The notes: generated by a model not told the origin, from the sequence alone. A stretch of 64,000 bases of DNA from an uncultured Acidobacteriota bacterium (GCA_963750915.1 CAVVSF010000007.1:1110654-1174653); one strand, 5' to 3'. Shown: positions 5,925 through 41,966, counted from the first letter of the stretch. Numbers and translations are program-made.

Positions 5925-5978
5925 CCGGCGGGTGCAGTATCCAGGGGCGTTGTCCCTCGAGGAAGGAAACACGGAGCG

Positions 5979-19563: not shown

Positions 19564-20097
19564 ATGAAACTTTCAGTCATGGCGACCATGGCGGCGGTTC
19601 TTGCGCTGACGATGCAGGCAACCAGCACGCCGCTGCGCATCGTGTCGTCGCTCGATCTCAACCGCTACCTCGGCAAATGGCACGAGGTCGCACGGCTGCC
19701 CAACCGCTTCCAGAAGCAGTGCGTCAGCGACGTCGTCGCGGAGTACGGGCTGCGCACCGACGGCAGGATCGACGTGCGGAATACGTGTCGTACTGGCGAC
19801 GGTACGACCGACGAGGCGCGGGGCATTGCGCGCAAGGCGGGCGACGGCAGCAACAACGCCGTGCTCCAGGTGCGCTTCGCGCCGGCGATCCTGTCGTTCC
19901 TGCCGATGGTGTGGGGCGACTACTGGGTCATCGGGCTGGGGCCCGACTACTCATGGGCGGTCGTCGGCACGCCCAACCGTCAATTCCTGTGGATCCTGTC
20001 GCGCACGCCGACGCTGAGCGACGCCGCCTACGAGCAGGCGATCGAAGTCGCGAGGGGCAACGGCTTCGATGTGATCAGGGTGATTCGATCCCGGTAG
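19564..20097 (+). CDS. blc: bacterial lipocalin (Blc-like outer-membrane lipoprotein)
   Basis: ORF 19456..20097. Start taken at MKLSVMATMAAVLALT. Motifs YLGKWHEVARLPNRFQ and DYWVIGLGPDYSWAVVGTPNRQFLWILSR. Confidence 0.85.
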   Translation: MKLSVMATMAAVLALTMQATSTPLRIVSSLDLNRYLGKWHEVARLPNRFQKQCVSDVVAEYGLRTDGRIDVRNTCRTGDGTTDEARGIARKAGDGSNNAVLQVRFAPAILSFLPMVWGDYWVIGLGPDYSWAVVGTPNRQFLWILSRTPTLSDAAYEQAIEVARGNGFDVIRVIRSR

Positions 20098-20141
20098 TCC
20101 GGTTGCGCGGTTGCCCGGACGATCGGACGACCGGACTACCG
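20092..20141. terminator. bidirectional hairpin spanning both stop codons of convergent blc and msrA
   Basis: Arms CGGTAGTCCGGTTG (20092-20105) and CGACCGGACTACCG (20128-20141) match at 13 of 14 positions. The interior holds CGGAC-type short repeats of the same unit family as 28395-28433. Confidence 0.6.
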
Positions 20142-20792
20142 AACGACCGAAGTATCAGCAGCGACTCCGACCGGGCAGGAAACGCCGGTGCCGCCGAGCC
20201 CGCAATAGCCGTCGGGATTCTTCGACAAATACTGCTGGTGATAGTCCTCGGCGTAATAGAACTCCGGCGCCGGGACTACTTCCGTCGTGATCGCGCCGTA
20301 GCCGCGCTTCGAGAGCTGCTCCTGGAAGATCGCCAGCGATCGCTCGGCCGCTTCCTGCTGCGCCTCGTCGAAGACATAGATGCCGGAACGGTACTGCGTC
20401 CCGACGTCGTTGCCCTGCCGCATGCCCTGCGTCGGGTCGTGACTCTCCCAGAACGCCTTCAACAGCGCGTCGTAGGAAACCTTCTTCGGGTCGAACACGA
20501 CGAGCACGACTTCGTTGTGGCCGGTCATGCCGCTGCAGACCTCGCGGTAGGTCGGATTCGGCGTGTAGCCGCCGGCGTAGCCAACTGCGGTCGTGTAGAC
20601 GCCCGGCAACTGCCAGAACTTCTTCTCGGCGCCCCAGAAGCACCCCATCCCGAACATGGCTCGCTCGAGACCGTCGGGAAACGGCGGCGACAGCCTGGCG
20701 CCGTTGACATGGTGCGCGGCCGGCACGTCCATCCGCTCCTCGCGTCCCGGTAACACCTGTTCACGCGTCGGCATTCTCGTCTTGCTGAACAA
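20136..20792 (-). CDS. msrA: peptide-methionine (S)-S-oxide reductase
   Basis: ORF 20136..20792. GCFWGAE active-site motif; [26 protein letters not shown]. Confidence 0.92.
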
Positions 20793-20830
20793 GGGGTCTC
20801 CTGTTCTGTTCTTACGATGTCACGGCGTCT

Positions 20831-20937
20831 GGCTCAGGGCTCAGGGCTCACGGCTCAGGAGAGCTTCCCGATCACGGTCGCTGGACTGTGATCGCGAGGC
20901 TCCTCGAGCCTGAGCCTTAAGCCCTGAGCCCTGAGCC
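20831..20937. repeat. inverted arrays of GGGCTCA heptamers (29-nt arms, ~49-nt spacer)
   Basis: Left arm GGCTCAGGGCTCAGGGCTCACGGCTCAGG (20831-20859). The reverse complement of the right arm (20909-20937) is GGCTCAGGGCTCAGGGCTTAAGGCTCAGG. The element abuts the stop codon of the GT-C gene. Confidence 0.85.
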
Positions 20938-22539
20938 CTACTCTACCTTCGTTGGTAAGACGCCGAGCAGGCGGACGAGGTTTCGATCGAGATCGTCCGG
21001 CGATTCGAGCGTCAGCAGGGCGCGGATAAGGGGCGCGAGCTGAGGTGAAGCCGCCGGCTGGGCACGTGAAGGCGCACCTGTTTCCGGGTCCCAGGTCATT
21101 GCCACGGCCGAGTCGGGCTGCGGCCCCTCGGACCAGCGCCGGAGCGCGGCCCGGGTGTCCTCGAACCAGCGGCCGCGGCAGCAGGTCAGCGACCGGGGTG
21201 AGATGAAGACGAAGCGCGTCGTCAGGTCGGCATCGACGAACGGTGGCTGCACCGCAAACGGCATCGCCCATTCCCAGCTGCGAGTCGGCGCCCCGACGAC
21301 GATCAGCGATCCTTCCGGCAGGACGCCGGCTATGGCTCGGACGTCCTGGACTGCGCGCTGCGACACCGCCGCCATCGTGTTCCAGTCGCGCACGGCGCGA
21401 TGCAGCGGCAGGAGGTACGCGGTGAGCACGACGAGAGCTGCAGAGATGACGAGCCGCTGCAGCGACGCGACCCGGGCGCGCGTCATCAGCACGTCGAACG
21501 CAATCGCCACTACCAGCGCCCAGCCAACCGCGGCGAGGTAGACGTGCCGCGGCGACGAGTAGCCGGCGACCAGGATCGGCGCTACGCCGATGAACCACCA
21601 GACGGGACCGAAGTACAGGATCAGCCGGCGCTCGTCGCTCCGCGCCAGTCGGAGCACCCAGATCAGCCCGAGCAGCGCCAGAACGACCACCGCGCGCCAG
21701 CCGTCGGCGTCACCGGTGATCACGTGCGCGAGGTGGCGCTCCACTAACGTCGCGAACTGCACGAGGCCCTCAGCCGTCAGCGCGCCCTCGCGCGCGACCT
21801 CGCCGAACAGCTGCAGTCGCAGCCAGAGATAGCCGGCCGTCAGCGCCGCGAACGGGACGTAGGGCGCGACGAACCGTGCGATCGGCGTCCACGGCTGGCG
21901 CAGGACGATGACGTCGTAGGCGGCGAGCGTCGCGACCATCGTGATCGTGTTCTGCTTCGTGAAGAGCGCAACGAAGAAGAGCCCGAGCGACCATCCGAAT
22001 AACGCAGGGGATGTCGAGCCGCCCCGCCGCCAGCGGGCATAGGCGAGGAACGACGCGAGGTAGAACAACGCCGGCATCGAATCGACGCGGCCGGTAATCC
22101 AGGCGACGCTTTCGGCGTGAACCGGCAGCAGGACGAACAACAGCCCCGCCAGTCCTGCAGCCGGGACGCTCATCGTCAGCGTCCGGGCAATCGCCAGCAC
22201 TAGCAGGCCGTTGGCGATGTGCAGGATGACGTTGAAGACGTGGTGCAGCCATGGCGAGCCCGCGCCCGCGAGGGCCGACAGCTGGTACGACAGGGCCGGG
22301 AACGGCCGGACTTCGTCGGGCGTGAACCCCCAGATCTGATCCATCCACGACGTGTAGAACCACCGCGGGAAGTAGGCCGCCGGCTTGGACGCCAGCAACT
22401 GCACTACGCCGAAGTCGTCGCGGACGAAGTAGTTCCCCAGGGTCGAGAAGTAGGCGAGAACTGCCGCGACCGCAATGATCAGCGCGGCAGCGCGCTCGTG
22501 CGTCCGGCTGGAGATCGCCGGCTCGGCGGACGGCGTCAC
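20938..22539 (-). CDS. polytopic GT-C-type glycosyltransferase (PMT/ArnT-like)
   Basis: ORF 20938..22881. Start taken at GTG 22537-22539, which overlaps the GT2 stop (GTGA). About 12 hydrophobic segments, an early FVRDDF acidic motif, and a soluble C-terminal domain. Confidence 0.75.
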   Translation of the reverse strand: MTPSAEPAISSRTHERAAALIIAVAAVLAYFSTLGNYFVRDDFGVVQLLASKPAAYFPRWFYTSWMDQIWGFTPDEVRPFPALSYQLSALAGAGSPWLHHVFNVILHIANGLLVLAIARTLTMSVPAAGLAGLLFVLLPVHAESVAWITGRVDSMPALFYLASFLAYARWRRGGSTSPALFGWSLGLFFVALFTKQNTITMVATLAAYDVIVLRQPWTPIARFVAPYVPFAALTAGYLWLRLQLFGEVAREGALTAEGLVQFATLVERHLAHVITGDADGWRAVVVLALLGLIWVLRLARSDERRLILYFGPVWWFIGVAPILVAGYSSPRHVYLAAVGWALVVAIAFDVLMTRARVASLQRLVISAALVVLTAYLLPLHRAVRDWNTMAAVSQRAVQDVRAIAGVLPEGSLIVVGAPTRSWEWAMPFAVQPPFVDADLTTRFVFISPRSLTCCRGRWFEDTRAALRRWSEGPQPDSAVAMTWDPETGAPSRAQPAASPQLAPLIRALLTLESPDDLDRNLVRLLGVLPTKVE

Positions 22540-23237
22540 GTGAAGCGGTACCTCAGGATCAGGCCGATCATGTTGAAGCCGGTCCTCAGCGTTCCCTTGA
22601 GGTTGCCGGTGATCTTCGATTCGCCGACGCGGCCGCGATAGTTGACCGGCACCTCGATCACCTTGAGGCCGCGCTGCAGCGCCAGGATCACCATCTCCGG
22701 GAGGAAGTGCGATGCGCCGACGGTCAGGTCGCCGCGAATCTTCTCGAGCGCGGCGCGGTGCGTCAGCCGCAGCGTGCAGCCGCAGTCGCTCAGCGACGGC
22801 CCGCCGAAGAGCACCTGCAGCAGCTTGGCGACGGTCCAGTTCCCCATTCGCAGGAACCACCCCATGTTCGCCTGGTCCCACACCAGCTCGCGCGTCGTCC
22901 TGGTGCCGCAGACCATGTCGAAGTCGTCGGCATAGGCCAGCAGCTTGAGCACGTCGCGGCCGATGAACGTGCCGTCGGGCTCGGCCATGATGACGATGTC
23001 GCCCGTCGCCTCCTGCAGCCCGCGCCGCAGCGCGAAGCCGTAGCCCTGCCGCGTCTCCTGCACCAGCCGCGCCCGCGTCTGCCGCGCTTCGTCGGCCGTC
23101 CGGTCGCGCGAGTTGTTGTCGACGACGACGACCTCGTCGACGACGTCAACCGAGAAGAAGTCCTCGACGGCGGCGCGGATGTAGCCCTCTTCGTTGTAGG
23201 CGGGCAGGACGACAGAAACGGTCTTGGTGCCGTGCAC
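22536..23237 (-). CDS. family-2 glycosyltransferase (polyprenol-phosphate sugar synthase-like)
   Basis: ORF 22536..23237. Motifs VVLPAYNEE, VVVDNNSRD and AEPDGT (DxD-like). Translationally coupled to the GT-C gene. Confidence 0.88.
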   Translation of the reverse strand: MHGTKTVSVVLPAYNEEGYIRAAVEDFFSVDVVDEVVVVDNNSRDRTADEARQTRARLVQETRQGYGFALRRGLQEATGDIVIMAEPDGTFIGRDVLKLLAYADDFDMVCGTRTTRELVWDQANMGWFLRMGNWTVAKLLQVLFGGPSLSDCGCTLRLTHRAALEKIRGDLTVGASHFLPEMVILALQRGLKVIEVPVNYRGRVGESKITGNLKGTLRTGFNMIGLILRYRFT

Positions 23238-23250
23238 TGGTGAATCTTAC

Positions 23251-23350
23251 CGGGGCTCGGGGTTCGGGGTTCGGGGACAGTCACTGGTGACTGGCACTGG
23301 TGACTGTCCCCGGGGACAGTCACTCGGGACAGTCACCAGTGACTGTCCCC
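23251..23350. repeat. GGGG(C/T)TC heptamer run followed by five copies, in both orientations, of the 11-12-mer GGGGACAGTCAC forming two nested hairpins
   Basis: CGGGGCTCGGGGTTCGGGGTTCGGGG at 23251-23276. GGGGACAGTCAC at 23273-84 and 23312-23, GGGACAGTCAC at 23326-36, and the inverted copy GTGACTGTCCCC at 23300-11 and 23339-50. Confidence 0.85.
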
Positions 23351-23397
23351 GAATGTGAAGTGATCAGTTTCTGCACACTGGGGCTTCGCGAACGTTG

Positions 23398-24393
23398 TCA
23401 CCGGCGCCAGGACGCGGGCAGGTTCCGCTCGATCTCGATCGCCTCGAACGCCGGCGTCGACCGGGCGCCGTGGATTCGCACCCAGGCCGCCATCGCCGCG
23501 AGGCCGTCGTCGAGCGACGTCGTCGAACGGTGACCGAGCACGCGCGCGATCTTGTCATGACTCGAATGCGCGTGCAGCACCTCGTGCCTGGCCGGCAGGT
23601 AGGCGATCGCCGGCTCGACGCCCATCGCCGCCGCGACGCGGGCCGCGAGATCGTTCAACGTCCAGGGATCGTCGGCGCCGACGTTGAAGATCTGGTTCCA
23701 CGCCGCCGGTTCGTCGATCGCCCGGACCATCAGCGGCGCGACGTCGTCGATGTAGCTGAAGGCGCGCGTCTGGGTGCCGTCGCCGAAGATCGTCATCGGC
23801 TGGCCCTGCAGGATCTGGTTCATGAAGATGCCGACGACGTTGCGGTAGCGATCGCCGATGTTCTGGCGCGGCCCGTAGACGTTGTGCGGCCGGAAGATCA
23901 TGTAGTCGAGGCCGAACATCGCGCGGCTGGCGGCGAGCTCGCGCTCGACGGCGTACTTCGCGATGCCGTACGGATCCTCGGGCGACGGGATGGTGTCCTC
24001 CGTCATCGGCAGGACCGGACTGCTGCCGTAGACGGCGATCGACGACGTGAAGACGAAACCCTTGACGCCGTTGTTGACGGCGGCGTTGATCAGGTTGGCG
24101 CTGCCGATGACGTTGTTCGTGTAGTTGAACCGCTTGATGAAATGGCTGAGGCCTTCGGCGGCGTAGGCGGCCAGATGAAAGACGCAATCGAAGCGCGACT
24201 CCGCGAAGAGTCGATCGACGAGCGCGTGATCGGTGACGCTGCCCTGGACAAACTGTGCGCCGGCCGGGAGGTTGTCCGGAAATCCGCCGCTGAGATCGTC
24301 GAGCACCGTTACCGTCCGACCCGACCGCACCAGCCCATCGGCCACGTGCGAGCCGATGAATCCGGCCCCGCCGGTCACGAGCACACGCTCCAT
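23398..24393 (-). CDS. NAD-dependent sugar-nucleotide epimerase/dehydratase (SDR family)
   Basis: ORF 23398..24393. GGAGFIGSH Rossmann motif; YGIAK (YxxxK) catalytic motif. Confidence 0.9.
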   Translation of the reverse strand: MERVLVTGGAGFIGSHVADGLVRSGRTVTVLDDLSGGFPDNLPAGAQFVQGSVTDHALVDRLFAESRFDCVFHLAAYAAEGLSHFIKRFNYTNNVIGSANLINAAVNNGVKGFVFTSSIAVYGSSPVLPMTEDTIPSPEDPYGIAKYAVERELAASRAMFGLDYMIFRPHNVYGPRQNIGDRYRNVVGIFMNQILQGQPMTIFGDGTQTRAFSYIDDVAPLMVRAIDEPAAWNQIFNVGADDPWTLNDLAARVAAAMGVEPAIAYLPARHEVLHAHSSHDKIARVLGHRSTTSLDDGLAAMAAWVRIHGARSTPAFEAIEIERNLPASWRR

Positions 24394-24517
24394 TCGGGCC
24401 GAATCCTACCATGCGGCCGATCCAAGCCCTTGGAGCCTCAATCCTCCACGACCGCTGTCATTCGTCACATTCTTTCGGCAACGGCCACAAACAGGCGTAG
24501 ATTCATCCCGGCTCAGG

Positions 24518-24533
24518 TGGCACTCGCGTTGCT
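24518..24533 (+). promoter_or_regulatory. sigma-54 (-24/-12) promoter upstream of the TonB-dependent receptor
   Basis: TGGCAC-TCGCG-TTGCT matches the TGGCAC-N5-TTGCW consensus exactly. It lies 70 nt upstream of ATG 24603. Confidence 0.6.
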
Positions 24534-24554
24534 CGCCTGCAGTTCGTCCCGCGC

Positions 24555-24580
24555 AGGTCCCGGCGGGACCTTTGTTTTCC
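24555..24580 (+). promoter_or_regulatory. leader hairpin followed by a T-rich run (possible attenuator/terminator-like element in the 5' UTR)
   Basis: AGGTCCC-GGC-GGGACCT (7-bp stem, 24555-24571) followed by TTGTTTTCC. It lies between the sigma-54 promoter and the GGAGG RBS. Confidence 0.35.
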
Positions 24581-24602
24581 TGGCAATACCTTTGGAGGTT
24601 GC

Positions 24603-27600
24603 ATGACGAGCCTAAGCAAGTGGGGTTCATCCTGGGTGCGCGCCAGCCTGGTGCTGGCGCTGGTCACGGTAACCGTGACTGCCGCGGCGGCCCAGACGAC
24701 CCTCGGCCGGGTGGCCGGCTCGGTGCTGGATTCATCCGGCGCCGCGCTCCCCGGCGCAACGGTCACGCTGACGAACGAGAAAACCAACCAGGTCCAGACG
24801 ACGGTGACGGGCGAGAACGGCGGCTACGTCTTCCCGCAGGTGTCGCCCGGCAGCTACAAAGTCGAATTCGCGCTCCAGGGCTTCAAGACCGCCGCCTTCA
24901 ACGAGGTGATCGTGGTCGTCGGCCAGGAACGATCGCTGACCGCCAACCTCGAACTCGGCGCGATCACCGAGCAGGTCGAAGTCACGGCCGGCGCGTCGCT
25001 GGTTTCGTCGACGAGCCCCGAAGTCAGCGCCACGGTTCTCCAGCGTCAGATCCTCGATATCCCGCTCGCGAACCGCGACGTCACCAACCTGATCAAAGCG
25101 CAGCCTGGTGTGCAGCCGTTCATCAACCGGACGAACACCAGCATCAACGGCGGCCGTCCGACCTGGACGACGGTCACGCTCGACGGCATCAACATCCAGG
25201 ACAACTTCATCCGCACCAACTCGCTCGACTTCCTGCCGAACCGTCCGACGTCGGACACGATCGCCGAGTTCTCGATCACGAGCTCGGTCGCCGGCGCGGA
25301 AGCGGCGGGCGGCGCCAGCTCGGTGCGCATGATCACGCCGTCGGGCTCCAATCGCTTCAGCGGCAGCGTCTTCGAGTTCAATCGCGACTCGAAGTACGCG
25401 GCGAACTCGTTCTTCAACAACGCGGCAAGGCCCTCGGTCCCCAAGTCGGACCTCAGCCGCCACCAGTTCGGCGGCCGCTTCGGCGGTCCGGTCCAGAAGG
25501 ACAAGTTGTTCTTCTTCGGCTACTACGAAGGCTTCCGGCAGACGACGCAGGCGTCGCAGAACCTCACCATCCCGGCCAACGCCGACTTCGTCAACGGCGT
25601 CTTCCGCTATGCCGGCAGCGATGGCGTCGTTCGTTCGGTGAACGTCATGGAACTGTCGGGACAGGCGGTCGACCCGACGCTGCGGCAGAATTTCCTGGGC
25701 CTGATTCCGGCGGCTTCGAACGTCAACAACTTCGAGACCGGCGACTCGACCACGAGCCGCAACCTGAACACTGCCGGCTACCGGTTCAACCAGACCGATC
25801 AGAACGATCGCAATCAGTGGGGCTTCAAACTCGACTACGCGATGTCGGACGCACATCGCTTCGAAGGCGGCTACCACTACTTCAAGGAGATCGACGATCG
25901 CACCGATCTCGATTCCATCAGCCCGGATCGTCCCCTGGTCTACACCAGCTCTGATCCAAAGCGCTTCTCGCTGGCGTGGCGGTATCTCGCCACCTCGAAC
26001 TTCCAGAACGAGCTGCGCGGCGGCGCCAACCTCGCGCCGGTGCAGTTCGAGAGCGACTGGGCATATAGCGGTAACCAGTACACGACGGCGCTCGGCATCA
26101 TCAACCCGATCGGCGGCAATGGCACGGCCATCGGCTTCCAGCCGCAGGGCCGCTACACCAACACCTACCAGATCGGCAACAACGCGTCGCTCCTGAAGGG
26201 CAGCCACCAAATCACGATGGGCGGCAGCTGGCAGCGGAATCACGTCAATCCGTACAACTTCGCCGGCGCGTTCCCCCAGGTCAACTTCGGCTACAGCGCC
26301 GCCGCGCCCGGCAGCCTGACGCTGACGACGTCGCAGTTCCCCGGCGGCATCGCAGCCGCGGATCTGACGCGCGCCAACGCGATGGCATCGTGGCTTGCCG
26401 GGACGATCACGTCGGTTCAGCGCACGTTCCAGGTCGAGGACACGAGCTCCGGCTTCGTCGGCGGCATCGCGTCGAACGAGAACTACACGCTCGACAACAT
26501 CGCCGCCTACGTCCAGGACAACTGGCGCTGGAAGCCGAACTTCACGGTGCGGGCGGGGTTGAAGTGGGAGTACTACAGCCCGCTGAAAGAGGACGACAAC
26601 CTCGGTTTCCTGCCGATCCTGAACGGCCGCTCGCTCGAGCAGACGATGCTCGACCCGGCGACGGAGCTCACCTTCGTCGAAGGCGACATGTACAACAAGG
26701 ATCTCAACAACTTCGGCCCGACGCTCGGCTTCGCCTGGGACGTCACGAAGGATGGTAAGACGGCAGTGCGCGGCGGCTACTCGCTGACGTTCGTCAACGA
26801 GGAGACGGTGACTGTCGGGCGCTCCGCGTCGCGTGGCAACACCGGCCTCAGCAGCGTCAGCATGCTCAGCAACCAGTTCGCTCGCGTCAACTCCGGCGTA
26901 CCCGAGGTCCCGACGCCAGCGTTCCTCTCAACCCGAACGCTTGCGAATCAGATGGCGCTCAGCTCCACCGGCGTGTTGTGGGGCCTGGACCCAGAGCTCC
27001 AGGCGCCGCACGTGCACCAGCTCAGCTTCGGCATCCAGCGCGAGCTGGGGGCGTCGACCGCGGTCGAAGCCCGCTACGTCGGCACGTTCGGCCGCGGCAT
27101 CTGGCGCGGCACCGACTACAACCAGGTGCAGATCAGCCCGGAGTTCCTCGCCGACTTCAATCGCGCCCGCTCGAACGGTTATCTCGCGCAGCAGGCAGGG
27201 CTGGCGTTCAACGGCGTCTTCAATCCCGCCGTTCCCGGCAGCCAGCCGCTGACGCTGCTGCCAAGCTTCGGGACCGCGCTCACCAACGCGACGATCGTCA
27301 CCAACCTGCAGACCAACCAGGTGGCGGCGCTGGCCGACTTCTACATGGTGCAACGCCTCACGACGCCGGCCACCTTCATGCAGAACCCCGGCATCTACGC
27401 CTCCCAGGCGCTGTCGAACGGCGGCTTCAGCGACTACAACTCAGCGCAGTTCGAGCTGCGGCGCCAGTTCCGGAACGGATTCTTCGGCCAGTTGAACTAC
27501 ACGTGGTCCGACACCAGCACCGACTCGTCGGGCACGGGCCAGAACCGCTTCGAGGCGTTCATGGACAACAACCGGCCCGGCCTCAACACCGGCCGATCCG

Positions 27601-28263
27601 TGTTCCACGTCACGCACGCCATCCAGGCCAACTCGATCTACGAGCTGCCCTTCGGCACCGGCAAGAGGTGGTTGAACTCGAACGGGCTCGTCGACGCCAT
27701 CGTCGGCGACTGGCAGGTCAGCGGCATCTTCGCGTGGTCGAGCGGTTCGCCGATCAGCATCACCTCGACGCGCGGCACGTTCAACCGCGCTGGCCGCTCG
27801 AACTGCGCGACCGATCCGATCTCGTGCAACACCGCGTTCACGAACCTGTCGCCTGAGGAGGTCAAGGGGCTGCTCGGCATCCACAAGGTCGAGGACCGGA
27901 TCTACTGGATCGATCCGAAGGTCATCGGCGCGGACGGCCGCGCCGTCGGCGCCGACAACCTGAACAACGCCGCTGGCTTCGACGGCCAGGTCTTCTTCAA
28001 CCCGGTCGCGGGCGAAGTCGGCAACCTGCCGATCCTGGAGTTCGACGGTCCGGCGCAGTTCCGCATCGACATGGCGCTGTCGAAGCGCTTCGGGTTCGGC
28101 GACACGCACCGCTTCGAGCTCAAGGGCGAGGCGTTCAACCTGACGAACACGCCGAGCTTCTTCCGCGGCGACATGGACATCAACAGCGAGACAGTTCGGC
28201 CGCCTCACCAGCGTCAACATCGGCTCGCGCGTCATCCAGTTGTCGATTCGGTACGAGTTCTAA
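24603..28263 (+). pseudogene. TonB-dependent receptor with N-terminal carboxypeptidase-regulatory-like domain; frame broken ~70 nt before the true stop
   Basis: ORF 24603..28382 is protein-like up to ...FFRGDMDINSE (28190). The +1 frame from 28192 reads QFGRLTSVNIGSRVIQLSIRYEF and ends in TAA at 28261-28263. This is the canonical terminal beta-strand ending in Phe, and it is followed immediately by a terminator hairpin. Length 3661 = 3n+1. Confidence 0.8.
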
Positions 28264-28284
28264 CCGAGGGGCTTCGCCCCTCGG
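28264..28284 (+). terminator. intrinsic terminator hairpin
   Basis: CCGAGGGGC-TTC-GCCCCTCGG, a perfect 9-bp GC-rich stem starting 1 nt after the TAA. A second hairpin follows: CGCGCGCCG (28304-12) / CGGCGCGCG (28319-27). Confidence 0.7.
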
Positions 28285-28394
28285 ACTCCCCTACACGCGC
28301 CCTCGCGCGCCGCTTCGTCGGCGCGCGCCGGGCGCGTGGCTCGCTCGCTACGCTCGCTCGCTGCAACCCAGACGAGTTCTAGAGTACCGGTTGT

Positions 28395-28433
28395 CGACCG
28401 GACCACCGGACGACCGGACTACCGGACCACCGG
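28395..28433. repeat. tandem 8-mer array (CNACCGGA, ~4.9 copies)
   Basis: CGACCGGA CCACCGGA CGACCGGA CTACCGGA CCACCGG, ending 3 nt before the stop of the minus-strand Zn-ribbon gene. Confidence 0.8.
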
Positions 28434-28436
28434 CTC

Positions 28437-29543
28437 TCAGTCCTCCCCCAACACCATCAGAATCAGGACCGCCGCAATCACCGCGACGATCACCAGGAAC
28501 AGGATCTTCCAGAAGCTCTTCGGATAGTCCCCTGCCATCCGCCCGGTCGCGCCGTTGACGACGACCTGGTAGGCCTTGGCGCTGAAGTTGTACGTCAGCA
28601 GCCAGATCGGCACGAGCAGATGCTTGAACGTCTGGCCCGAATAGGTCGGCTGGATGGTCAGGTTGCGGTAGGTGTCGCCGGGAATCTGCGCCGCGCACAG
28701 CTGCCTCACCTGCTCGGTCATCGACTCTTCGGAACGCTTCGCAGCGTCGACGAGCACGATCTGGTAGTGCTCGACGACGAAGCCGGAGACAAACGCCTTG
28801 TCGTACGGCTTGAGGTCGGTGAAGGGAAACGGCTCGATCTGCTTCAGCAGCTCGTGCGAGACGCCGTGCGTGCCTGGAATCGGCTCGTCGTCGAAGAAGT
28901 GCCGGATCTCGCCTGACGCCGGCACCCAGCGGACCTTGCGGACCTGGCGCGTCTGCATCCGTCCGTTCTGGCGGAAGGTCTCGGTCTCGTAGTAGTAGTG
29001 CCCGGCATCGGCCTGCCAGGGGCTGACGACGTGGGCGTCGAACGTCCAGTAGGGAATGTAGAGGCCGTGGACGCGGTCGACGAGGGCGCGCGTCTTGAGG
29101 CGATTCGGCGCCAGCCACTTGCTGGCGTACCAACTACGGATCTGCTCGCGCACCGCCGTCTCGGGCACCGTGAACGGCAGCAGGCTCCTCGGCCGGATCG
29201 GCGCCTTGATCTCCTCGTAGTCGACCAGCTTGGGCGAGCCGCAGAAGTCGCAGTTCTGGCCGACGCGCTCCGGATCGAAGACCGAGATCGCCTGGCAGTT
29301 CTGGCACTGCACCGTGCGTTTCTCGGTCAGCCATCCGCGCTCGGCGTCCGGCACCTCGCGCAGCGCTTTCGCGAGCTCCAGCTCCTCGATCGCGCCGGTC
29401 GCGGCGTCGACGTCGAAAGGCGCCGCCGTGCCGCAGAACGGACACACCAGCAGCTTGCGCGCCGGATTCCACTGCGCCTGGGCACCGCAGGCGGCGCAGG
29501 GGTACTTGTCGAGGGCGGAGAGGTTGGTGGGCTCAGGGCTCAA
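28437..29543 (-). CDS. zinc-ribbon membrane-anchored protein (YdjG-like partner of SPFH proteins)
   Basis: ORF 28437..29543. Two CxxC pairs at the N-terminus (CAACG...CPFCG) and a second ribbon (CQNCQ...CDFCG). C-terminal TM segment (FWKILFLVIVAVIAAVLILMVL). The only upstream in-frame start is TTG at 29541-29543, inside the heptamer array. Confidence 0.75.
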   Translation of the reverse strand: MSPEPTNLSALDKYPCAACGAQAQWNPARKLLVCPFCGTAAPFDVDAATGAIEELELAKALREVPDAERGWLTEKRTVQCQNCQAISVFDPERVGQNCDFCGSPKLVDYEEIKAPIRPRSLLPFTVPETAVREQIRSWYASKWLAPNRLKTRALVDRVHGLYIPYWTFDAHVVSPWQADAGHYYYETETFRQNGRMQTRQVRKVRWVPASGEIRHFFDDEPIPGTHGVSHELLKQIEPFPFTDLKPYDKAFVSGFVVEHYQIVLVDAAKRSEESMTEQVRQLCAAQIPGDTYRNLTIQPTYSGQTFKHLLVPIWLLTYNFSAKAYQVVVNGATGRMAGDYPKSFWKILFLVIVAVIAAVLILMVLGED

Positions 29544-29671
29544 GGCTCAGGGCTCAGGGCTCGTTCAGGCTCAGGGCTTAGGGCTCAGGGCTTAGGGGGC
29601 TCAAGGCTCGGGTTCGGGGCTCGGTTCGGGCTCGCGGCACGGCCTGAGCCCTGAGCCCTGAGCCCTGAGCC
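29529..29671. repeat. long GGGCTCA/GGG(G)TTC heptamer array (about 14 units) followed by four inverted units (CCTGAGC x4)
   Basis: The direct array runs 29529 to about 29632. The inverted arm CCTGAGCCCTGAGCCCTGAGCCCTGAGCC is at 29643-29671. The element fills the whole spacer between the SPFH stop (29674) and the Zn-ribbon start (29543). Confidence 0.9.
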
Positions 29672-29673
29672 GA

Positions 29674-30720
29674 TCACTTAGCGAGATACTCGTCCAGCGA
29701 GCTCTTCTTGATCCGGTACGCCGTGCCAATCTTCTTGGCGGCGAGCTCGCCGGACTCGATGATCGCCATGACGTCGGCTTCGGCGACGCCGAGCGCCTTG
29801 GCGGCGTCGGCCGGCGACAGCAGGTCGGGCAGCGCCACGGCGGCAGTGGCGGCGGTGGCGGCGCTCGCGCCGGGCATGCCCTGCTGCTGCATGATCTGCT
29901 GCGCGATCGAGAGGCCGACGGCGAGCTCGGTCGCGGCGCCCGCCGAGCCGCCGCCCTTCTCCATTCCCTGCGCCATCTGGAACTTGACGTAGTCGTTGAG
30001 GTTGCCGACGGCCGCCATGCTCGAGCGCTTGTCGATCGCCTGCTCGACCTCCGGCGGCACCGACACGTTCTCGACGATGAAGCTGGCGATCTCGATGCCG
30101 TACTTCGCGGCGATCACGGGATTGATCAGCGGCAGCAGCGCTTCGCCGAGCTCGGTGTAGCGGCTGGCGACGTCGAAGACCGGAATCTTTGCCGAGGCCT
30201 GGGCGTCGGCGAAGACGCTGACGATGCGCGAGCGCATGGTGTCGGCGAACTCGTCGAGGCGGAAGTTCTGATCCGAGCCGGCGACTTCCTTGAGGAACAT
30301 CTTCGCGTCGACGATCCGGAAGTCGTAGGTCCCGAAGGCGCGGACGCGCACGATCCCGAGATCGTTGTCGCGCATCATGATCGGGTTGGCCGTGCCCCAC
30401 TTGTTGCCGGTGAAGAGCCGCGTGTTGAGGTAGTAGACGTCGGCCTTGAACGGCGAGTTGAAGCCGTACTTCCACGACTTCAGCTTCGTCAGCACCGGGA
30501 TGTTGTCGGTCGTCAGCGTGTGCTTGCCCGGCCCGAAGGTGTCGCCGAACTCGCCGACGTAGATGAACTGCGCCTGCTGCGATTCGCGGACGATGAGCTG
30601 CGCCCCGTTCTTGATCGCCTTGTCATCGTCGGGAAACCGGAAAGAGAGCGTGTCGCGCGAGTCGTCGGTCCACTCGATGACGTCGATCAGCTCGCCCTTG
30701 ATGAAGTCCATCAGTCCCAT
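29674..30720 (-). CDS. SPFH/band-7 domain protein (COG4260 / YdjI-like) with C-terminal excisionase-type HTH
   Basis: ORF 29674..30729. ATG at 30718-30720 gives MGLMDFIKGELIDVIEW, the typical N-terminus. The C-terminal 50 aa (LLSPADAAKALGVAEADVMAIIESGELAAKKIGTAYRIKKSSLDEYL) match the HTH_17/excisionase pattern. Confidence 0.85.
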   Translation of the reverse strand: MGLMDFIKGELIDVIEWTDDSRDTLSFRFPDDDKAIKNGAQLIVRESQQAQFIYVGEFGDTFGPGKHTLTTDNIPVLTKLKSWKYGFNSPFKADVYYLNTRLFTGNKWGTANPIMMRDNDLGIVRVRAFGTYDFRIVDAKMFLKEVAGSDQNFRLDEFADTMRSRIVSVFADAQASAKIPVFDVASRYTELGEALLPLINPVIAAKYGIEIASFIVENVSVPPEVEQAIDKRSSMAAVGNLNDYVKFQMAQGMEKGGGSAGAATELAVGLSIAQQIMQQQGMPGASAATAATAAVALPDLLSPADAAKALGVAEADVMAIIESGELAAKKIGTAYRIKKSSLDEYLAK

Positions 30721-30796
30721 GTTGGACACTCTTTCACGAAAGCTCGAACATCGAAGGTCGAGGTTCGAAGGTTAGGCGCGTCGGCAGTTTCACTCG

Positions 30797-30916
30797 TCGG
30801 GGCTCGGGGTTCGGGGTTCGGGGTTCGAAAAGCTTCAGATCTCAGCCGAGCGACTCAGAGCCGCCCGATTAGTTCTGAAGGTTTTCGAGCCCCGAACCCC
30901 GAGCCCCGAACCCCGA
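30797..30916. repeat. inverted arrays of GGGG(C/T)TC heptamers (35-nt arms, 50-nt spacer)
   Basis: Left arm TCGGGGCTCGGGGTTCGGGGTTCGGGGTTCGAAAA (30797-30831). The reverse complement of the right arm (30882-30916) is TCGGGGTTCGGGGCTCGGGGTTCGGGGCTCGAAAA. It lies downstream of msrB and upstream of the SPFH gene. Confidence 0.9.
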
Positions 30917-30964
30917 GGTTGGCTATTCTAAAGCATTCGCCTTCTCCGCAGGCTCCTGCAGGAC

Positions 30965-31393: not shown

Positions 31394-31424
31394 GCTGTCG
31401 CCCAGTCGCGGCCGCCGCGACCGG

Positions 31425-33056: not shown

Positions 33057-33095
33057 GAGTACCTCGGCGCTCCGGAAGGATCCGGATCGCCGGAC

Positions 33096-33917: not shown

Positions 33918-33928
33918 TGTCACGCCGG

Positions 33929-35942: not shown

Positions 35943-36132
35943 GGACAGATGTTATCCCGGATGGCGCGGACGCATTGGTCCGCCGGATTTGTCGTGGTAA
36001 TCTTCTATCGATAGCCACCCGCGTTCCGATGGCGGTGTGCCCACACGGGCAGCCGTAGGGCGCATCCGGGACGGCTCTCGCGACCTCGGGCCGATCCCAC
36101 CAACCGAACACGGTCGCCGAGGTATCGCCGAG

Positions 36133-37122
<990 letters not shown>

Positions 37123-37226
37123 TCGCGGTTATCTTTCTCACGGGACGCGGATCTCACGGATATCACGGATTTCCGGGGCCGCTCGCCGCCGCTCGCTCGC
37201 ATCGGCGTGAGCCGCTCCCGTGCCGA

Positions 37227-38087: not shown

Positions 38088-38100
38088 CTCGTGAACGCGG

Positions 38101-38574
38101 TCAGGAGGCGCGGCACGCCGCGAGGACGGCCTCGAAGATGCGGGTGTAGCCGGTACAGCGGCACAGGTTGCCGGCGAGCGCGACCCGGACATCGTCGACC
38201 GACGGCTCTGGGGTGCGCTCGAGCAGCGTCAGCGCCGCGAGGACCATCCCCGGCGTGCAGATGCCGCACTGCGCGCCGCCGTGACGGACAAAGGCCTCCT
38301 GCACGGCGTGGAGGCGGCCGCCGTCGGCGACGCCTTCGATCGTCGTGATCGTCGCGCCGCGCGCGTGCAGCAGCGGGAACAGGCAGCTGTTCACGAGCGC
38401 GCCGTCGACGACGACCGAACAGGCGCCGCACTCGCCCTCGCCACAGCCTTCCTTGGTGCCGGTGAGCTGCAGCTGACGCCGCAGCGCGTCGAGCAGGCGC
38501 TCGAGCGGATGGCCGGTCAGCGTGACCTCGGTGCCATTGACGCGGCACCCGACGCTGACCTCCTGCTCACGCAC
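38101..38574 (-). CDS. xanthine dehydrogenase family, [2Fe-2S] (small) subunit
   Basis: ORF 38101..38574. Motifs CGEGECGACSV and QCGICTPGMV...CRCTGY. Confidence 0.92.
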   Translation of the reverse strand: MREQEVSVGCRVNGTEVTLTGHPLERLLDALRRQLQLTGTKEGCGEGECGACSVVVDGALVNSCLFPLLHARGATITTIEGVADGGRLHAVQEAFVRHGGAQCGICTPGMVLAALTLLERTPEPSVDDVRVALAGNLCRCTGYTRIFEAVLAACRAS

Positions 38575-40783
38575 CGGCGGGCTCCATCAGCGCCATCAGC
38601 GATTCGGGCGTCATCGGCAGCGTCCGCGGGTCGGCGCCGAGCGCGTGCGCGATGGCGTTGGCGATGGCCGGCGCGGGCCCGTCCATCGGCAGCTCGCCAA
38701 TGCCTTTCGCGCCTCCCGGACCGTGCGCGTACGGCTGCTCTTCGAAGTAGACGCGGATCGGCGGCAGATCCATCGACGTCGGCATGATGTAGTTCGTCAT
38801 CTCGCCATTGGCCATGCGGCCCTCGCGCCACACGACCCGCTCGTAGAGTGCCCAGCCGATTGCCTGGGCGATGCCGCCCTCGATCTGCCCGGTCGCGAGC
38901 ACCGGGTTGATGACGCGCCCGACTTCCTGGACGGCGACGAAGTCGTCGACGCGCGTCTCGAAAGTCGTCGTGTCGACCGAAACCTCCGCGACGTACGCCG
39001 CCCAGGCGTAGGTGCCGTACGCGTCACCCTGATACGTCTCGTCGTCCCACCGCAGGCCGGGCGGCGGCTGGTAGCGGGCGATGGCACGCAGCGGGCCGAA
39101 TCGCGCGGTGAAGTCGGCGCACGCACGGCAGAACGCCTCGGGCGCGAAGCCTTCTGCAGCCAGGCCGGCCCTGGCGAGCTCGGCGCGCAGGTTGGCTGCC
39201 GCCGATTCCACCAGCTTGCCGACGACCATGCACGTGCGCGAGGCGACGGTCGGGCCGCTGTCCGGTACGACGGCCGTGTCCGGCCGGACGACCTCTATGA
39301 GGTCGGGCGGCACGCCGAGCGCGTCCGCGGCGATCTGCGTGAAGATCGTCGTGGTGCCCTGGCCGATCTCGGTGTTCGACGAGAGGATCCGGACGTGGCC
39401 GTTGCGGTCGGCCTCGATCGCGACGACGGAGCGCAGGTGTTCCTCGCCAGAGCCGGTGAAGCCGGCGCCGTGCATGAAGGTGGCGAGGCCGATGCCCTTC
39501 CGCACCGTCAACGCCGGGTTGACCGCGGTGAAGCGGTCGCGCTTCGCGTGGTAGTCGGCGATCGTCATCGCGCGATCGAGCAGCGCGGCCATGTCGATCG
39601 GATCGCGCATCACCTGGCCGACGGCGCTCGTCTGCCCAGGGCGGATGAAATTGCGGCGGCGCAGTTCGTCCGGGGTCAGACCGACGGCGGCCGCGACGCG
39701 ATCCATGTGGCGCTCGAGCGCGAACAGGCTCTGCGGCGCGCCGAAGCCGCGAAACGCGCCGTGCGGCGGCGCGCTGGTCGCGACGGCGCGGCCGCTGAGC
39801 CGCACGTTCGGGCAGAAGTACGGCCCGGCGGCGTGAATCGTGCCGCGCGACAACACTACCGGCGACAGCGTGCAGTAGGCGCCGCCGTCGATGACGAAGT
39901 CGATCTCCATGCCGAGCAGCCGGCCGTCGGTCGACACCGCGGTCCGATGCCGCGTTCGCGACGGATGCCGCTTGGTCGACGCGACCATGTCCTCGGCGCG
40001 ATCGTAGACGAGCTTGACCGGCCGGCCAGACTTCCACGCCAGGAGCGCGGCATGCGCGGCAACGATGGACGGGTATTCCTCTTTCCCGCCGAAACCGCCG
40101 CCGGTCTCCATCTGCACGACGCGAACCTTGGCGGCCGGCAGATCGAAGATCGCCATCAGCGCCTTGTGGATGTAGTACGGGCACTGCATCGACCCCCACA
40201 CCGTGACGCCGGCGTCGGGCGAAGCCACCGCGATCATCCCGTTCGGCTCGATGTAGAGCTGCTCCTGCGCGCCGGTCTCGTATTCGCCTTCGACGATGAC
40301 CGGGGCCGCCGCGAGCGCCGCGTCGACGTCGCCGCGCGAGACGACATAGCGCTTGAAGACGTTGTCCTCTCCCCACACGATCTCGCGCCCGCCGAGGGCA
40401 TCGTCGATGGTGAAGACCGGCGGCTCTTCGTGAATGTCGATGCGGACGTGGCGGCGCGCCTTCTCGAGCAGCTGGCGGTCGGAATGCGCGAGCAGCAGTA
40501 CAGGTTCTTCGGGATGATTGACGCGATCGTCGGCGAGGCAGGGCTGGTCGTCGAGGATGAGCGCGATGCGGTTGCGGCCGGGGATGTCCGCCGCCCTGAC
40601 GACGGTGATGGCGCTCCAGTCGATCTCGGGACCGTATTCGATCCCGCGGATCCAGCCGCGCGGCGACGGGCTCCGGACGGTCATGCCATGCAGCATGCCC
40701 GGCAGTGTCATGTCATCGACGTACTGCGCCCGGCCGGTGACCTTCTCCGGTCCGTCGCGACGGGGCGTTGACGCGCCAAGCAT
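38567..40783 (-). CDS. xanthine dehydrogenase/aldehyde oxidase family, molybdopterin-binding (large) subunit
   Basis: ORF 38567..40783, 738 aa. Motifs GGGFGGKE and GKGIGELP. Overlaps the small-subunit start by 8 nt. Confidence 0.92.
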   Translation of the reverse strand: MLGASTPRRDGPEKVTGRAQYVDDMTLPGMLHGMTVRSPSPRGWIRGIEYGPEIDWSAITVVRAADIPGRNRIALILDDQPCLADDRVNHPEEPVLLLAHSDRQLLEKARRHVRIDIHEEPPVFTIDDALGGREIVWGEDNVFKRYVVSRGDVDAALAAAPVIVEGEYETGAQEQLYIEPNGMIAVASPDAGVTVWGSMQCPYYIHKALMAIFDLPAAKVRVVQMETGGGFGGKEEYPSIVAAHAALLAWKSGRPVKLVYDRAEDMVASTKRHPSRTRHRTAVSTDGRLLGMEIDFVIDGGAYCTLSPVVLSRGTIHAAGPYFCPNVRLSGRAVATSAPPHGAFRGFGAPQSLFALERHMDRVAAAVGLTPDELRRRNFIRPGQTSAVGQVMRDPIDMAALLDRAMTIADYHAKRDRFTAVNPALTVRKGIGLATFMHGAGFTGSGEEHLRSVVAIEADRNGHVRILSSNTEIGQGTTTIFTQIAADALGVPPDLIEVVRPDTAVVPDSGPTVASRTCMVVGKLVESAAANLRAELARAGLAAEGFAPEAFCRACADFTARFGPLRAIARYQPPPGLRWDDETYQGDAYGTYAWAAYVAEVSVDTTTFETRVDDFVAVQEVGRVINPVLATGQIEGGIAQAIGWALYERVVWREGRMANGEMTNYIMPTSMDLPPIRVYFEEQPYAHGPGGAKGIGELPMDGPAPAIANAIAHALGADPRTLPMTPESLMALMEPAGA

Positions 40784-40811
40784 GGGAGGTCGCAGGGTAC
40801 TGACCCGACTT

Positions 40812-40870
40812 AGCTGACAGCAAAAGGCTGTGAGCTGAAAGCTGAGAGCTGACAGCTGACAGCTGACAGC
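40812..40870. repeat. AGCTGAN heptamer array with an adjoining inverted copy (hairpin) directly after the YpfJ-like stop codon
   Basis: AGCTGACAGC-AAAAG-GCTGTGAGCT, then GAGCTGA AAGCTGA GAGCTGA CAGCTGA CAGCTGA CAGC up to 40870. The stop codon is at 40871. Confidence 0.8.
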
Positions 40871-41728
40871 CTATTGAAATGTATCGCAGGTCTTCATGTC
40901 ACCGGATTGCAGGCCGCGGCGGAACCAGGTAACGCGCTGCTCGGAGGAACCGTGGGTGAACCGGTCGGGTGCGACGCGGCCGCCCGACATGCGCTGGATG
41001 CGGTCGTCGCCGATCGCGGCGGCGGCGTTCAGTCCTTCCTCGACGTCGCCGGATTCGAGCTCGACCTTGCCCTCCGCGGCGCGGCCCGACCGGGCCGCCG
41101 TGTTGCCCCAGACTCCGGCAAAGCAGTCCGCCTGCAGCTCGAGGCGGACCGAGAGCGCATTCTGCTGATCGGGGCGCGACTGCTGCAGCTGGCGGACCTG
41201 GCCCTCGATGCCCGTAATGCGCTGCACGTGGTGACCGACCTCGTGCGCGAGTACGTACGCCTGCGCGAAATCGCCCGGCGCGCCGAACCGGGCGCGAAGC
41301 TCGTTGAAGAAACCAAGGTCGAGGTAAACCAGCTGGTCGGCCGGGCAATAGAAGGGACCGGTCGCCGACTGGCCCATGCCGCAGGCCGACGGATACGTAT
41401 CACGGAAGATGACGGCGCGGGTCGGACGATAGCGGCCGCCGAGCTGCGCCTGCCAGATCTCCTGGACGTCCCGCATCACCGCGTCGACAAAGAGGGTGAG
41501 CTCCTCTTCCTCCGGTGTCGTCCTCAACTCCCCGGCACCTGCGTTCGCAGAAGGCGGCGCTGTCGCGTCGGGCCCGACCAGCTGGAGGAAGTCGATCCCC
41601 GTCAGCCAGCTCAGGATGAGGACGACCAGCAAGCCGCCGATCCCGAGCCCGCCCATGCGCATCCCGCCCCCGCCCGAGCTGGCGCGAACATCTTCGATGT
41701 TGTCGCGGTTTCCGGCTGTCCATTTCAT
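40871..41728 (-). CDS. YpfJ-family neutral zinc metallopeptidase
   Basis: ORF 40871..41728. N-terminal TM segment; HEVGHH zinc motif; LELQADCFAGVW. Confidence 0.9.
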   Translation of the reverse strand: MKWTAGNRDNIEDVRASSGGGGMRMGGLGIGGLLVVLILSWLTGIDFLQLVGPDATAPPSANAGAGELRTTPEEEELTLFVDAVMRDVQEIWQAQLGGRYRPTRAVIFRDTYPSACGMGQSATGPFYCPADQLVYLDLGFFNELRARFGAPGDFAQAYVLAHEVGHHVQRITGIEGQVRQLQQSRPDQQNALSVRLELQADCFAGVWGNTAARSGRAAEGKVELESGDVEEGLNAAAAIGDDRIQRMSGGRVAPDRFTHGSSEQRVTWFRRGLQSGDMKTCDTFQ

Positions 41729-41762
41729 TGAGAGGTCCTCACGGGCGAGTGAATACTACATC

Positions 41763-41958
41763 GGGTGCGCACGACGGGTGCGCACGTTAGGTGCCCACGG
41801 CAGGTGCTCAGGGCAAGTGATCGCGCCGCGGAGCTGTGACCTGAAACGGCCACCCTAGCCGGTCGCGGCGGACGAATGCAGATACGGTGCCGACCTGGGA
41901 GAACAGACGGTGCGCACCCGTTGTGGGCACCAGCCGTGCGCACCTGACGTGCGCACCA
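41763..41958. repeat. two inverted arrays of four 13-bp units, each with a palindromic GTGCGCAC core (arms ~50 nt, spacer ~90 nt)
   Basis: Core positions are 41765, 41778, 41791, 41804 and 41910, 41923, 41936, 41949, an exact 13-nt period. The reverse complement of the right arm aligns unit-for-unit with the left arm. Confidence 0.9.
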
Positions 41959-41966
41959 GAAGTGAA

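Follow-up and report, generated by a model that had tools for sequence, protein, structure and literature searches.

The window and its repeat elements

The whole stretch of DNA analyzed in this study, hereafter the window, comprises 64,000 nucleotides from an uncultured Acidobacteriota bacterium (GCA_963750915.1, CAVVSF010000007.1:1110654-1174653). It has a GC content of 66-71% and carries between its genes a series of repeat elements, in most of which an array of short tandem units is followed by its own inverse or pairs with itself. The strongly folding elements are confined to one 22-kb stretch (20092-41964), and the remaining 42 kb of the window include approximately 27 spacers of 25 nt or longer, all of them free of such elements. 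Genes were called with a crude GC3 heuristic and named via Pfam. Between 20.1 and 45 kb they are mostly encoded on the minus strand, the main exceptions on the plus strand being the genes for a TonB-dependent receptor (24603-28382) and a deoxyhypusine synthase (36037-37122).

Arrays were located by means of Tandem Repeats Finder (TRF) and their arms by an inverted-repeat scan, and the folds of the sense-strand RNA were scored against shuffled sequences (z). An earlier examination of this DNA, referred to below as the original prediction, had listed nine loci of one architecture, eight of which were confirmed by TRF and the inverted-repeat scan, with arms of 25-53 nt being 76-93% complementary. 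The paired elements fold as single long hairpins, and the long stems that had been proposed were recovered at the RNA level, with computed energies from -35 to -125 kcal/mol and z-scores from -3.5 to -10, the fold being weaker at 28383-28440 (z -2.9). The ninth locus (37136-37169) was dropped as a member, having 2.6 copies and a spacer fold equal to that of the shuffles (z -0.19), and the unit of the array at 23273-23350, previously given as 12 nt, was found by TRF to be 13 nt long. An assembly artefact was rejected, since the same elements are present in independent short-read and long-read assemblies and in L081, a strain with 96% DNA identity to the window. The arrays and paired elements of the window are the following:

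20092-20141, no strand assigned: inverted arrays of 8-nt units (CCGGTTGC / CCGGACGA) with abutting arms (TRF 20090-20118 and 20115-20149; inverted repeat I22)
20831-20940, minus strand: paired element of (GGCTCAG)x4, a 49-nt centre, and (CCTGAGC)x4 (TRF; I7, arms 93% complementary)
23251-23276, minus strand: single (GGGGYTC)x3.7 array without inverted partner (TRF)
23270-23353, minus strand: palindromic array of 13-nt units (GGGGACAGTCACT) with two 42-nt arms and no loop (TRF periods 13 and 39; I3, 90% complementary)
28397-28433, no strand assigned: single (ACCGGACC)x4.6 array (TRF)
29529-29672, minus strand: paired element with unequal arms, (GGCTCAG)x4, an 18-nt centre, and ~14 degenerate (TGAGCCC) units (TRF; I6 and I8)
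30740-30772, minus strand: weak single array of TCGAAGG-like units, 4.7 copies, 69% matches (TRF; absent from the original prediction)
30797-30917, minus strand: paired element of (GGGGYTC)x4.4, a 58-nt structured centre, and the inverse array (I2, 46-nt arms, 89% complementary)
40812-40870, minus strand: single AGCTGAC-like array (TRF)
41758-41964, minus strand: paired element with 13-nt units (GGTGCGCACGNCN, GTGCGCAC core) (I1, 53-nt arms, 79% complementary)

The convergent lipocalin (+) and msrA (-) genes are separated by a 38-nt spacer that is filled by the element at 20092-20141, both TAG stops lying within its arms (-35.4 kcal/mol, z -4.1). The element at 20831-20940, whose 49-nt centre is a hairpin in its own right, begins at the TAG with which the upstream minus-strand gene ends (20938-20940), and the msrA start is located 39 nt further on (region 20825-20945, -90.6 kcal/mol, z -9.7). 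The single array at 23251-23276 matches an arm of the 30797 element, is separated by 13 nt from the start of the glycosyltransferase gene, and adjoins the next hairpin (23270-23353), which is placed 44 nt past the epimerase stop (region 23245-23360, -71.6 kcal/mol, z -8.6); the junction orthologous to the latter measures 0-7 nt in three relatives (L004, L006, and L068) and holds a different element in a fourth (L003). The array at 28397-28433, which is separated by 3 nt from the zinc-ribbon stop on the minus strand, pairs with itself via its CCGG core, and this is the marginal fold mentioned above.

The paired element with unequal arms (29529-29672) begins 2 nt past the SPFH stop (region 29525-29674, -77.6 kcal/mol, z -6.7). 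Just upstream of the SPFH start, the weak array at 30740-30772 is kept in L081, and relatives carry GAAGT-rich arrays at this position. The element at 30797-30917 is placed 47 nt past the msrB stop (region 30790-30925, -94.8 kcal/mol, z -10). Directly 3' of the Zn-peptidase stop, the array at 40812-40870 has a nearly self-complementary unit (CAGCTG core) and folds on itself (-34.8 kcal/mol, z -3.5); in the orthologous array of L161, the units are substituted. The longest element, 41758-41964, begins 2 nt past the MatE stop and comprises ~4 units per arm around a 100-nt structured centre (region 41729-41970, -125 kcal/mol, z -6.9), its L161 counterpart having 5 units in one arm and at most 2 in the other.

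At the 29529-29672 element, the neighbouring reading frame is affected as well. In relatives, the zinc-ribbon gene starts with ATGCCCGACAT, a sequence that is replaced by heptamer-array sequence in the window and in L081 (29520-29546), and the TTG at 29543, located in the far arm of the hairpin, is the sole in-frame start before the CxxC motif. The array has overwritten the start of the zinc-ribbon gene, the TTG at 29543 likely being the start of this next gene.

Architecture and position in related genomes

For comparison, the window was pooled with 160 related loci (1.86 Mb in all), which were gathered by a search with the SPFH/HTH protein encoded at 29674-30729 (-) and comprise 80 genome and 80 metagenome loci. 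The genome loci titled below phylum level were nearly all metagenome-assembled genomes of Vicinamibacterales/Vicinamibacteria, with protein identities of up to 96%, and the window itself stems from a genome of the order Vicinamibacterales. Apart from L081, other close relatives share ~80% DNA identity with the window and have kept its gene order.

Among the intergenic tandem arrays of at least 20 nt, period 7 was the most frequent (185 arrays), followed by periods 8 (73), 14 (62), 9 (50), and 16 (19), and periods 1-6 combined contributed 12 arrays. Period-7 arrays numbered 185 in intergenic versus 24 in coding DNA, and coding arrays show periods divisible by three. For 109 of the 271 (40%) intergenic 7/8-mer arrays with non-palindromic units, an inverted partner was detected no more than 300 nt away, while the control orientations, namely direct (2), reversed (0), and complement-only (11), remained below 5%. 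In total, 83 paired elements were catalogued (54 with heptamer, 21 with octamer, and 8 with longer units), featuring a median length of 104 nt and a median centre of 46 nt. In form, the element is an imperfect palindrome of ~65-170 nt, with arms of ~4 tandem units of 7 or 8 nt, sometimes 13-14 nt, enclosing a short and unique sequence that often pairs with itself.

The units themselves are diverse: 108 distinct heptamers were counted among 215 arrays, several of them occurring per genome, and the unit was shared in 18.8% of array pairs within one sequence versus 4.9% between sequences. A GGG or CCC run is present in the unit of 35 of the 83 paired elements, and many units are AT-rich or palindromic (e.g., AATGCTG, ATTGCAG, and AGCTGAC). 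The modal copy number of 4.0-4.5 units is equal for G3 and non-G3 units. The G-rich arm was located 5' in 52 elements versus 17, a polarity that was retained when each unit was counted once (33 units versus 13, p = 0.005). The period is conserved, and the sequence of the unit is free. Grouping of the units by one mismatch was uninformative, because random heptamers percolate too, and the idea of one conserved core was dropped after BLAST of the centres against all loci had returned apparent 'type A' and 'type B' cores that are only weakly shared.

Paired elements are found a median of 6.5 nt past the upstream stop and a median of 21.5 nt before the next start, and thus fill their spacers. They were present at 6.6% of convergent, 4.1% of co-directional, and 2.7% of divergent junctions, the corresponding values for any array being 17.8%, 12.0%, and 11.4%. 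The 3'-end bias of paired elements is real and moderate, and to this extent the enrichment of arrays at gene ends that had been predicted is present in the 1.86 Mb around SPFH. The more far-reaching statement that every copy lies downstream of a stop codon applies to the window but not to the wider sample, in which ~11% of the paired elements sit between divergent genes; the window copies all lie downstream of stops because most genes at 20-43 kb are encoded on the minus strand and the spacers there are mostly gene-downstream. Strong folding in general is far more 3'-end-biased than the paired elements, since 30% of convergent, 15% of co-directional, and 4% of divergent spacers have z < -4. 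SSR (simple sequence repeat) arrays were found in 50-63% of these strongly folded spacers.

The absence of a U-tract noted in the original prediction was borne out, at least five T in 8 nt being present in 2 of 66 element tails. In the window between 20 and 40 kb, seven classical terminators were found versus 9.3 expected, none of them on the gene strand and none at the elements, and the Rfam 15 covariance models gave no match at gathering score anywhere in the window.

Two junctions illustrate how differently one position can be occupied. The SPFH-to-zinc-ribbon junction is shorter than 30 nt in 39 of 123 distinct relatives, with overlapping genes in some of them, and is strongly folded in 26 of the 123; SSR arrays with ~20 different units account for 24 of these 26 cases. 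At the convergent receptor/zinc-ribbon junction, a hairpin was found in all nine genomes compared, the window included. A clear inverted pair is present in eight of them and a single self-pairing array in the window, each with its own unit.

Three further observations concern other parts of the window. Compared with L081, the open reading frame of the TonB-dependent receptor (24603-28382) contains a frameshift: the conserved C-terminus (...SIRYEF*) lies in another frame and ends at 28263, while the called frame crosses a GC-rich spacer of 119 nt and ends with ...DEF* at 28382. The 10-mer ACGAGTTCTA is located at both ends of this 119-nt stretch (28254-28263 and 28373-28382). The stop at 28382 is probably a frameshift artefact and 28263 probably the true gene end, and the anomaly at 28180-28382 could reflect an error in sequencing, a pseudogene, or an insertion accompanied by duplication of the gene end. 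A short GC-rich hairpin with a perfect stem, CCGAGGGGC-TTCG-GCCCCTCGG (28264-28285), follows directly 3' of what is probably the true stop of the receptor gene and may exemplify an ordinary terminator-like hairpin in this genome. Unrelated repeats at 7694-7876 and 8316-8408, with periods of 78, 36, and 15 nt (multiples of three), are located within and at the end of an 831-residue open reading frame (5925-8420) that is rich in Gly, Tyr, and Asn and has no Pfam match.

Change between strains and possible origins

Three spacers were comparable between the window and L081. The element downstream of SPFH has a far arm that is shorter by 38 nt in L081 and a near arm of four units in both strains. 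Variation in unit number between strains, as predicted, was thus detected for one arm, the other being unchanged. In the GGGGYTC element (30797), the arms are kept, and the centre has its best match in the orientation opposite to that of the flanks (92.5% over 40 nt), which indicates that it was inverted via recombination between the arms. The convergent receptor/zinc-ribbon junction carries an 8-mer array in the window and, instead of it, a GGGGYTC paired element in L081; the latter strain has two GGGGYTC copies, the second at 2939-3058.

Likeness between elements was also detected across sites. The element at 5940 in L068 is 89% identical over 94 nt to a non-orthologous one in L005 (19684-19777) and 74% identical to its orthologue, and the window element at 20831 shares 78% identity over 110 nt with a non-orthologous element in L068 (12435-12543). 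The aligned sequences show that units are gained and lost, centres flipped by arm recombination, and whole elements replaced between near-identical strains, and that copies sharing arms and centre occur at unrelated spacers.

More complex arrangements were observed as well. A 440-nt spacer past the Zn-peptidase gene of L162 (3954-4400) consists of ATTGCAG/ACTGAAG heptamer arrays and their inverses, and the last 21 nt of this gene (CAATAATCGTGTCCTACTGCA) are present three times, which indicates that the entire element was duplicated in tandem along with the end of the gene. In L022 (11094-11340) and at the same junction of L028, GGAGGACG-type arrays flank a long palindrome of ~190 nt with unrelated sequence, which looks like a second hairpin element nested in the first.

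The absence of target-site duplications and of a transposase stated in the original prediction was upheld. The longest string shared by the left and right flanks averaged 4.1 nt versus 3.9 nt in shuffled pairings, and strings of at least 6 nt were found in 7.9% versus 5.5%. The outermost paired bases have no tetranucleotide in common, and no transposase, reverse transcriptase, or RAYT is encoded among the window genes. At the RNA level, sense and antisense folds did not differ in stability (20 against 21), and G.U pairs showed no excess on the sense strand (107 versus 126 antisense). Mirror symmetry of unit variants between the arms was likewise absent, shuffling of the unit order in one arm giving a difference of +0.31 matches (p = 0.67). 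The arms match because both are arrays of one consensus unit, and an arm complementarity above that of shuffled arrays, the lack of which the original prediction had listed among its grounds for refutation, was not borne out when the unit order was shuffled. There is no sign of individual base pairs being maintained, nor of selection on the sense RNA.

A local pattern was seen in the spacer past the SPFH gene of L006/L007 (~11050-11160), where every unit of the 5' arm (GGCTTTA) differs by one and the same transition from the complement of the 3' arm (TAGAGCC), so that the sense strand has U.G pairs where the other strand has C.A mismatches. This hints at local RNA-level pairing in these arms that is unseen in the global test.

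We favour a reading in which the elements are a lineage-wide population of non-coding foldback repeats in Vicinamibacterales, slippage-evolving and dispersed, and regard this as an even call. Slipped-strand mispairing would homogenise each arm, and recombination from arm to arm, together with copying or conversion between spacers, would spread the variants without leaving a transposase signature. Selection would clear the elements from coding DNA and partly from promoter-bearing spacers, so that they would pile up after stop codons and between convergent genes, surviving where they are least harmful. As RNA, they are predicted to form stems of 40-55 bp that would loop the insert out and bring the upstream stop to within ~28 nt of the next start, a distance like that in element-free relatives, and this restored spacing may make the elements tolerable inside operons. 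Among the three suggestions of the original prediction, a selfish family similar to REP (repetitive extragenic palindromic) sequences or MITEs (miniature inverted-repeat transposable elements) agrees best with our results, given the likeness between non-orthologous sites, the replacement of elements, and the loop inversion. It is plausible, if unproven, that the elements serve in addition as barriers or processing sites at 3' ends or as terminators lacking a U-tract, because stable spacers are 3'-end-biased and hairpins were gained recurrently at one junction, but such a role sits uneasily with stems three to five times as long as those of typical terminators (PMC3013805).

Several points weigh against this reading. 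Neither a mobilising enzyme among the window genes nor an insertion signature in the element flanks was recognised. Most centres are unique, significant likeness being limited to a few non-orthologous pairs, and the evidence for mobility therefore extends to a few sub-families, not to the class as a whole. Every locus was sampled around one gene (SPFH), whose flanks in the relatives' loci are ~3x richer in arrays than other regions, so that densities and context statistics are biased; orthologous copies are non-independent, and the gene calls are heuristic. Finally, hairpins were gained independently in many lineages at the SPFH junction, and selection for a functional hairpin may be an equally good explanation of this.

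The latter possibility leads to an explanation by dedicated 3'-end RNA hairpins, that is, U-tract-less (I- or X-shaped) terminators or barriers to 3'-exonucleases that arose in situ and were kept by selection, the units representing growth of the stem. The pronounced 3'-end bias of spacers with z < -4, half or more of which contain SSR arrays, the start of the elements 6.5 nt past stops, the lack of classical terminators between 20 and 40 kb, the hairpin in nine of nine genomes at the convergent receptor/zinc-ribbon junction, and the unrelated hairpins gained at one SPFH junction in many lineages all fit this idea. We nevertheless consider it rather unlikely, as the stems of 40-55 bp and -60 to -125 kcal/mol far exceed those of typical terminators (7-14 bp, -15 to -25 kcal/mol), and many elements occupy junctions at which the genes of relatives overlap or nearly abut, where a strong terminator would cut an operon. 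Moreover, ~11% are located in divergent spacers, neither a sense-strand excess of G.U pairs nor position-specific compensation between the arms was found, and elements are replaced and resized between 96%-identical strains. The earlier suggestion of an expandable terminator or stabiliser is weakly supported, the evidence being mixed: in its favour are the strong 3'-end bias of very stable spacers and the element starts ~6 nt past stops, and against it are the operon-like and divergent spacers, the over-stable stems, the missing G.U bias, and a complementarity equal to that of unit-shuffled arms. Quite unlikely, in our view, is an origin as pure mutational by-products without mobility or function, made on the spot by polymerase slippage favouring 7-8-nt units and by fold-back template switching. 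A heptamer excess in many bacteria has been ascribed to the polymerase footprint (cited in PMC4692102 and PMC4679880), more than 100 units and mostly unique centres would fit a local origin, and the arms behave as independent arrays of one consensus unit. Against this stand whole elements, with arms and centre, that are more alike at non-orthologous sites than between orthologues, the replacement of an element at one junction between close strains, and a 4-unit mode and 52:17 polarity that are unexpected from unconstrained slippage.

It is very doubtful, although conceivable, that the arrays were made by an unrecognised process that specifies the period and leaves the sequence free, the hairpins having later been co-opted as register-slipping 3'-end structures. 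One example would be that repeats are added, or synthesised by folding back, at the two 3' ends of a break or an inserted hairpin, which would place the same unit, inverted, on each side. Such a process would explain why, read 5' to 3' on either strand, the G-rich sequence leads towards the centre, as in fused telomeres, why a fixed period of 7-8 nt goes along with a free sequence, and why no transposase signature is present. Regulatory repeats forming G-quadruplexes or i-motifs, as proposed for Xanthomonas and Nostoc, appear highly improbable here. Four copies of GGGCTCA or GGGGYTC do fit the G3+N1-7 motif, and the 4-unit mode and the 5' position of the G-rich arm agree with Rehm et al.; however, only 35 of the 83 paired elements have the GGG or CCC run, the 4-unit mode is equal in units without G3, many units are AT-rich or palindromic, and the stem of the paired elements would compete with a quadruplex. 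Scarcely credible, finally, is a function as arrays to which a sequence-specific DNA- or RNA-binding protein would attach, each of its repeated domains reading one unit. The regular period and the preference for ~4 units would suit such a protein, and a similar proposal was made for the TAACTGA repeats (PMC4679880), but 108 heptamer units in 215 arrays, several per genome, are unreadable by any single protein, and binding of this kind does not need the inverted arrangement.

Comparison with known repeat systems

CRISPR arrays, in which direct repeats of 23-50 nt alternate with unique spacers of similar length, were rejected, in agreement with the original prediction: the units of 7-14 nt are arranged head-to-tail without spacers, and a separated direct copy was found for 2 of 271 arrays. 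The elements likewise differ from MITEs by the lack of target-site duplications (4.1 versus 3.9 nt) and of conserved terminal inverted repeats, which in MITEs derive from an insertion sequence. Canonical L-shaped terminators are set apart by their U-tract, which was detected in 2 of 66 tails only. I- and X-shaped terminators have no U-trail, are located within 50 nt of the stop, and are common in high-GC genomes; they can be shared by convergent genes, and typical stems measure 7-14 bp at ~-18 kcal/mol (WebGeSTer DB, PMC3013805). The elements resemble them in forming a hairpin within 50 nt of the stop without a U-trail, a likeness known here from sequence alone, and are unlike them in having stems of 40-55 bp and -60 to -125 kcal/mol that are built from tandem units and also occur away from 3' ends.

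The REP, BIME, and REPIN sequences of proteobacteria are short extragenic inverted doublets that form hairpins, number hundreds per genome, and are often located past genes and inside operons without target-site duplication. They are considered selfish elements, any roles in mRNA stability and termination being secondary, and each arm is a single palindromic unit of 20-40 nt with a conserved GTAG or CGTC head, mobilised by RAYT (PMC3116915, PMC3733652). Hairpins from inverted doublets past genes and inside operons, without target-site duplication, are features of the present elements, too, whereas their arms are tandem arrays of variable sequence with no conserved head, and no RAYT is present among the window genes. 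Foldback-type transposons such as FB and Galileo of Drosophila have long inverted arms of tandem sub-repeats, which are unequal in repeat number and resized by expansion and contraction, around a centre that is variable or missing (PMC3573991, PMC4079207). The likeness in sub-repeat arms, unequal counts, and expansion or contraction is architectural only, since Foldback elements are eukaryotic and kilobase-sized, have autonomous copies with a transposase, and leave target-site duplications. Cyanobacterial STRR and the TAACTGA repeats of Beggiatoaceae are intergenic tandem heptamers that are abundant in their lineages and of unknown function; they have one or a few fixed units, are nearly always direct, and lie mostly just upstream of start codons (PMC4679880). 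Inverted pairs are exceptional among them, in contrast to the elements described here.

The original prediction had stated that no described class fits, which has to be revised, since Rehm et al. (2015, PLoS One; PMC4692102) reported that Xanthomonas carries inverted arrays of heptamers between genes, adjoining stop codons. Each genome contains ~185 GGGAATC arrays, of which ~90% are intergenic, and 70-75 inverted pairs, with a mode of four units and lengths that differ between related species. The coding strand carries the G-rich array, which overlaps the stop or is located no more than 50 nt from it, and arrays are rare between divergent genes. Most of the arrays occur in inverted pairs, and neither a link to insertion sequences nor a known function was reported; in Nostoc, the counterpart is an intergenic heptamer repeat with the unit GGGGAYT (PMC4692102). 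In the literature searched, no paper on such repeats in Acidobacteria was found. The present elements correspond to the Xanthomonas repeats in being tandem heptamers in intergenic DNA (185 versus 24 coding), in the preference for ~4 units (mode 4.0-4.5), in frequent inverted pairs (109/271) with the G-rich arm 5' (52 versus 17), and in their location near the upstream stop (median 6.5 nt) with fewer copies at divergent junctions, the bias being moderate. They share every listed Xanthomonas feature except the single quadruplex-capable unit. One conserved G-rich unit of the quadruplex type is found per genus there, as opposed to 108 heptamer units here, several per genome, most of which cannot form a quadruplex. 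Furthermore, they add to that description units of 8, 13, and 14 nt, structured centres, loop inversion, and replacement between strains.

Heptamers are the most over-represented long simple repeats in many bacteria, and in Xanthomonas the one detailed study explained them by G-quadruplex formation. Since the same architecture, 4-unit mode, polarity, and position past the stop are found here with mostly non-quadruplex units, period and hairpin seem to outweigh the sequence. Our finding argues against the quadruplex explanation and points to the structure of DNA or RNA or to the mechanism of origin. In Vicinamibacterales, an abundant and mostly uncultured soil group, most of the very stable 3'-end hairpins in our sample are such elements. 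They differ between near-identical strains, and gene starts can be overwritten by them; these properties bear on operon prediction, gene annotation, assembly, and strain typing. Compared with the repeats of Xanthomonas, they represent a new, many-unit form of a known but unexplained bacterial repeat, in which the period is fixed and the sequence is not.

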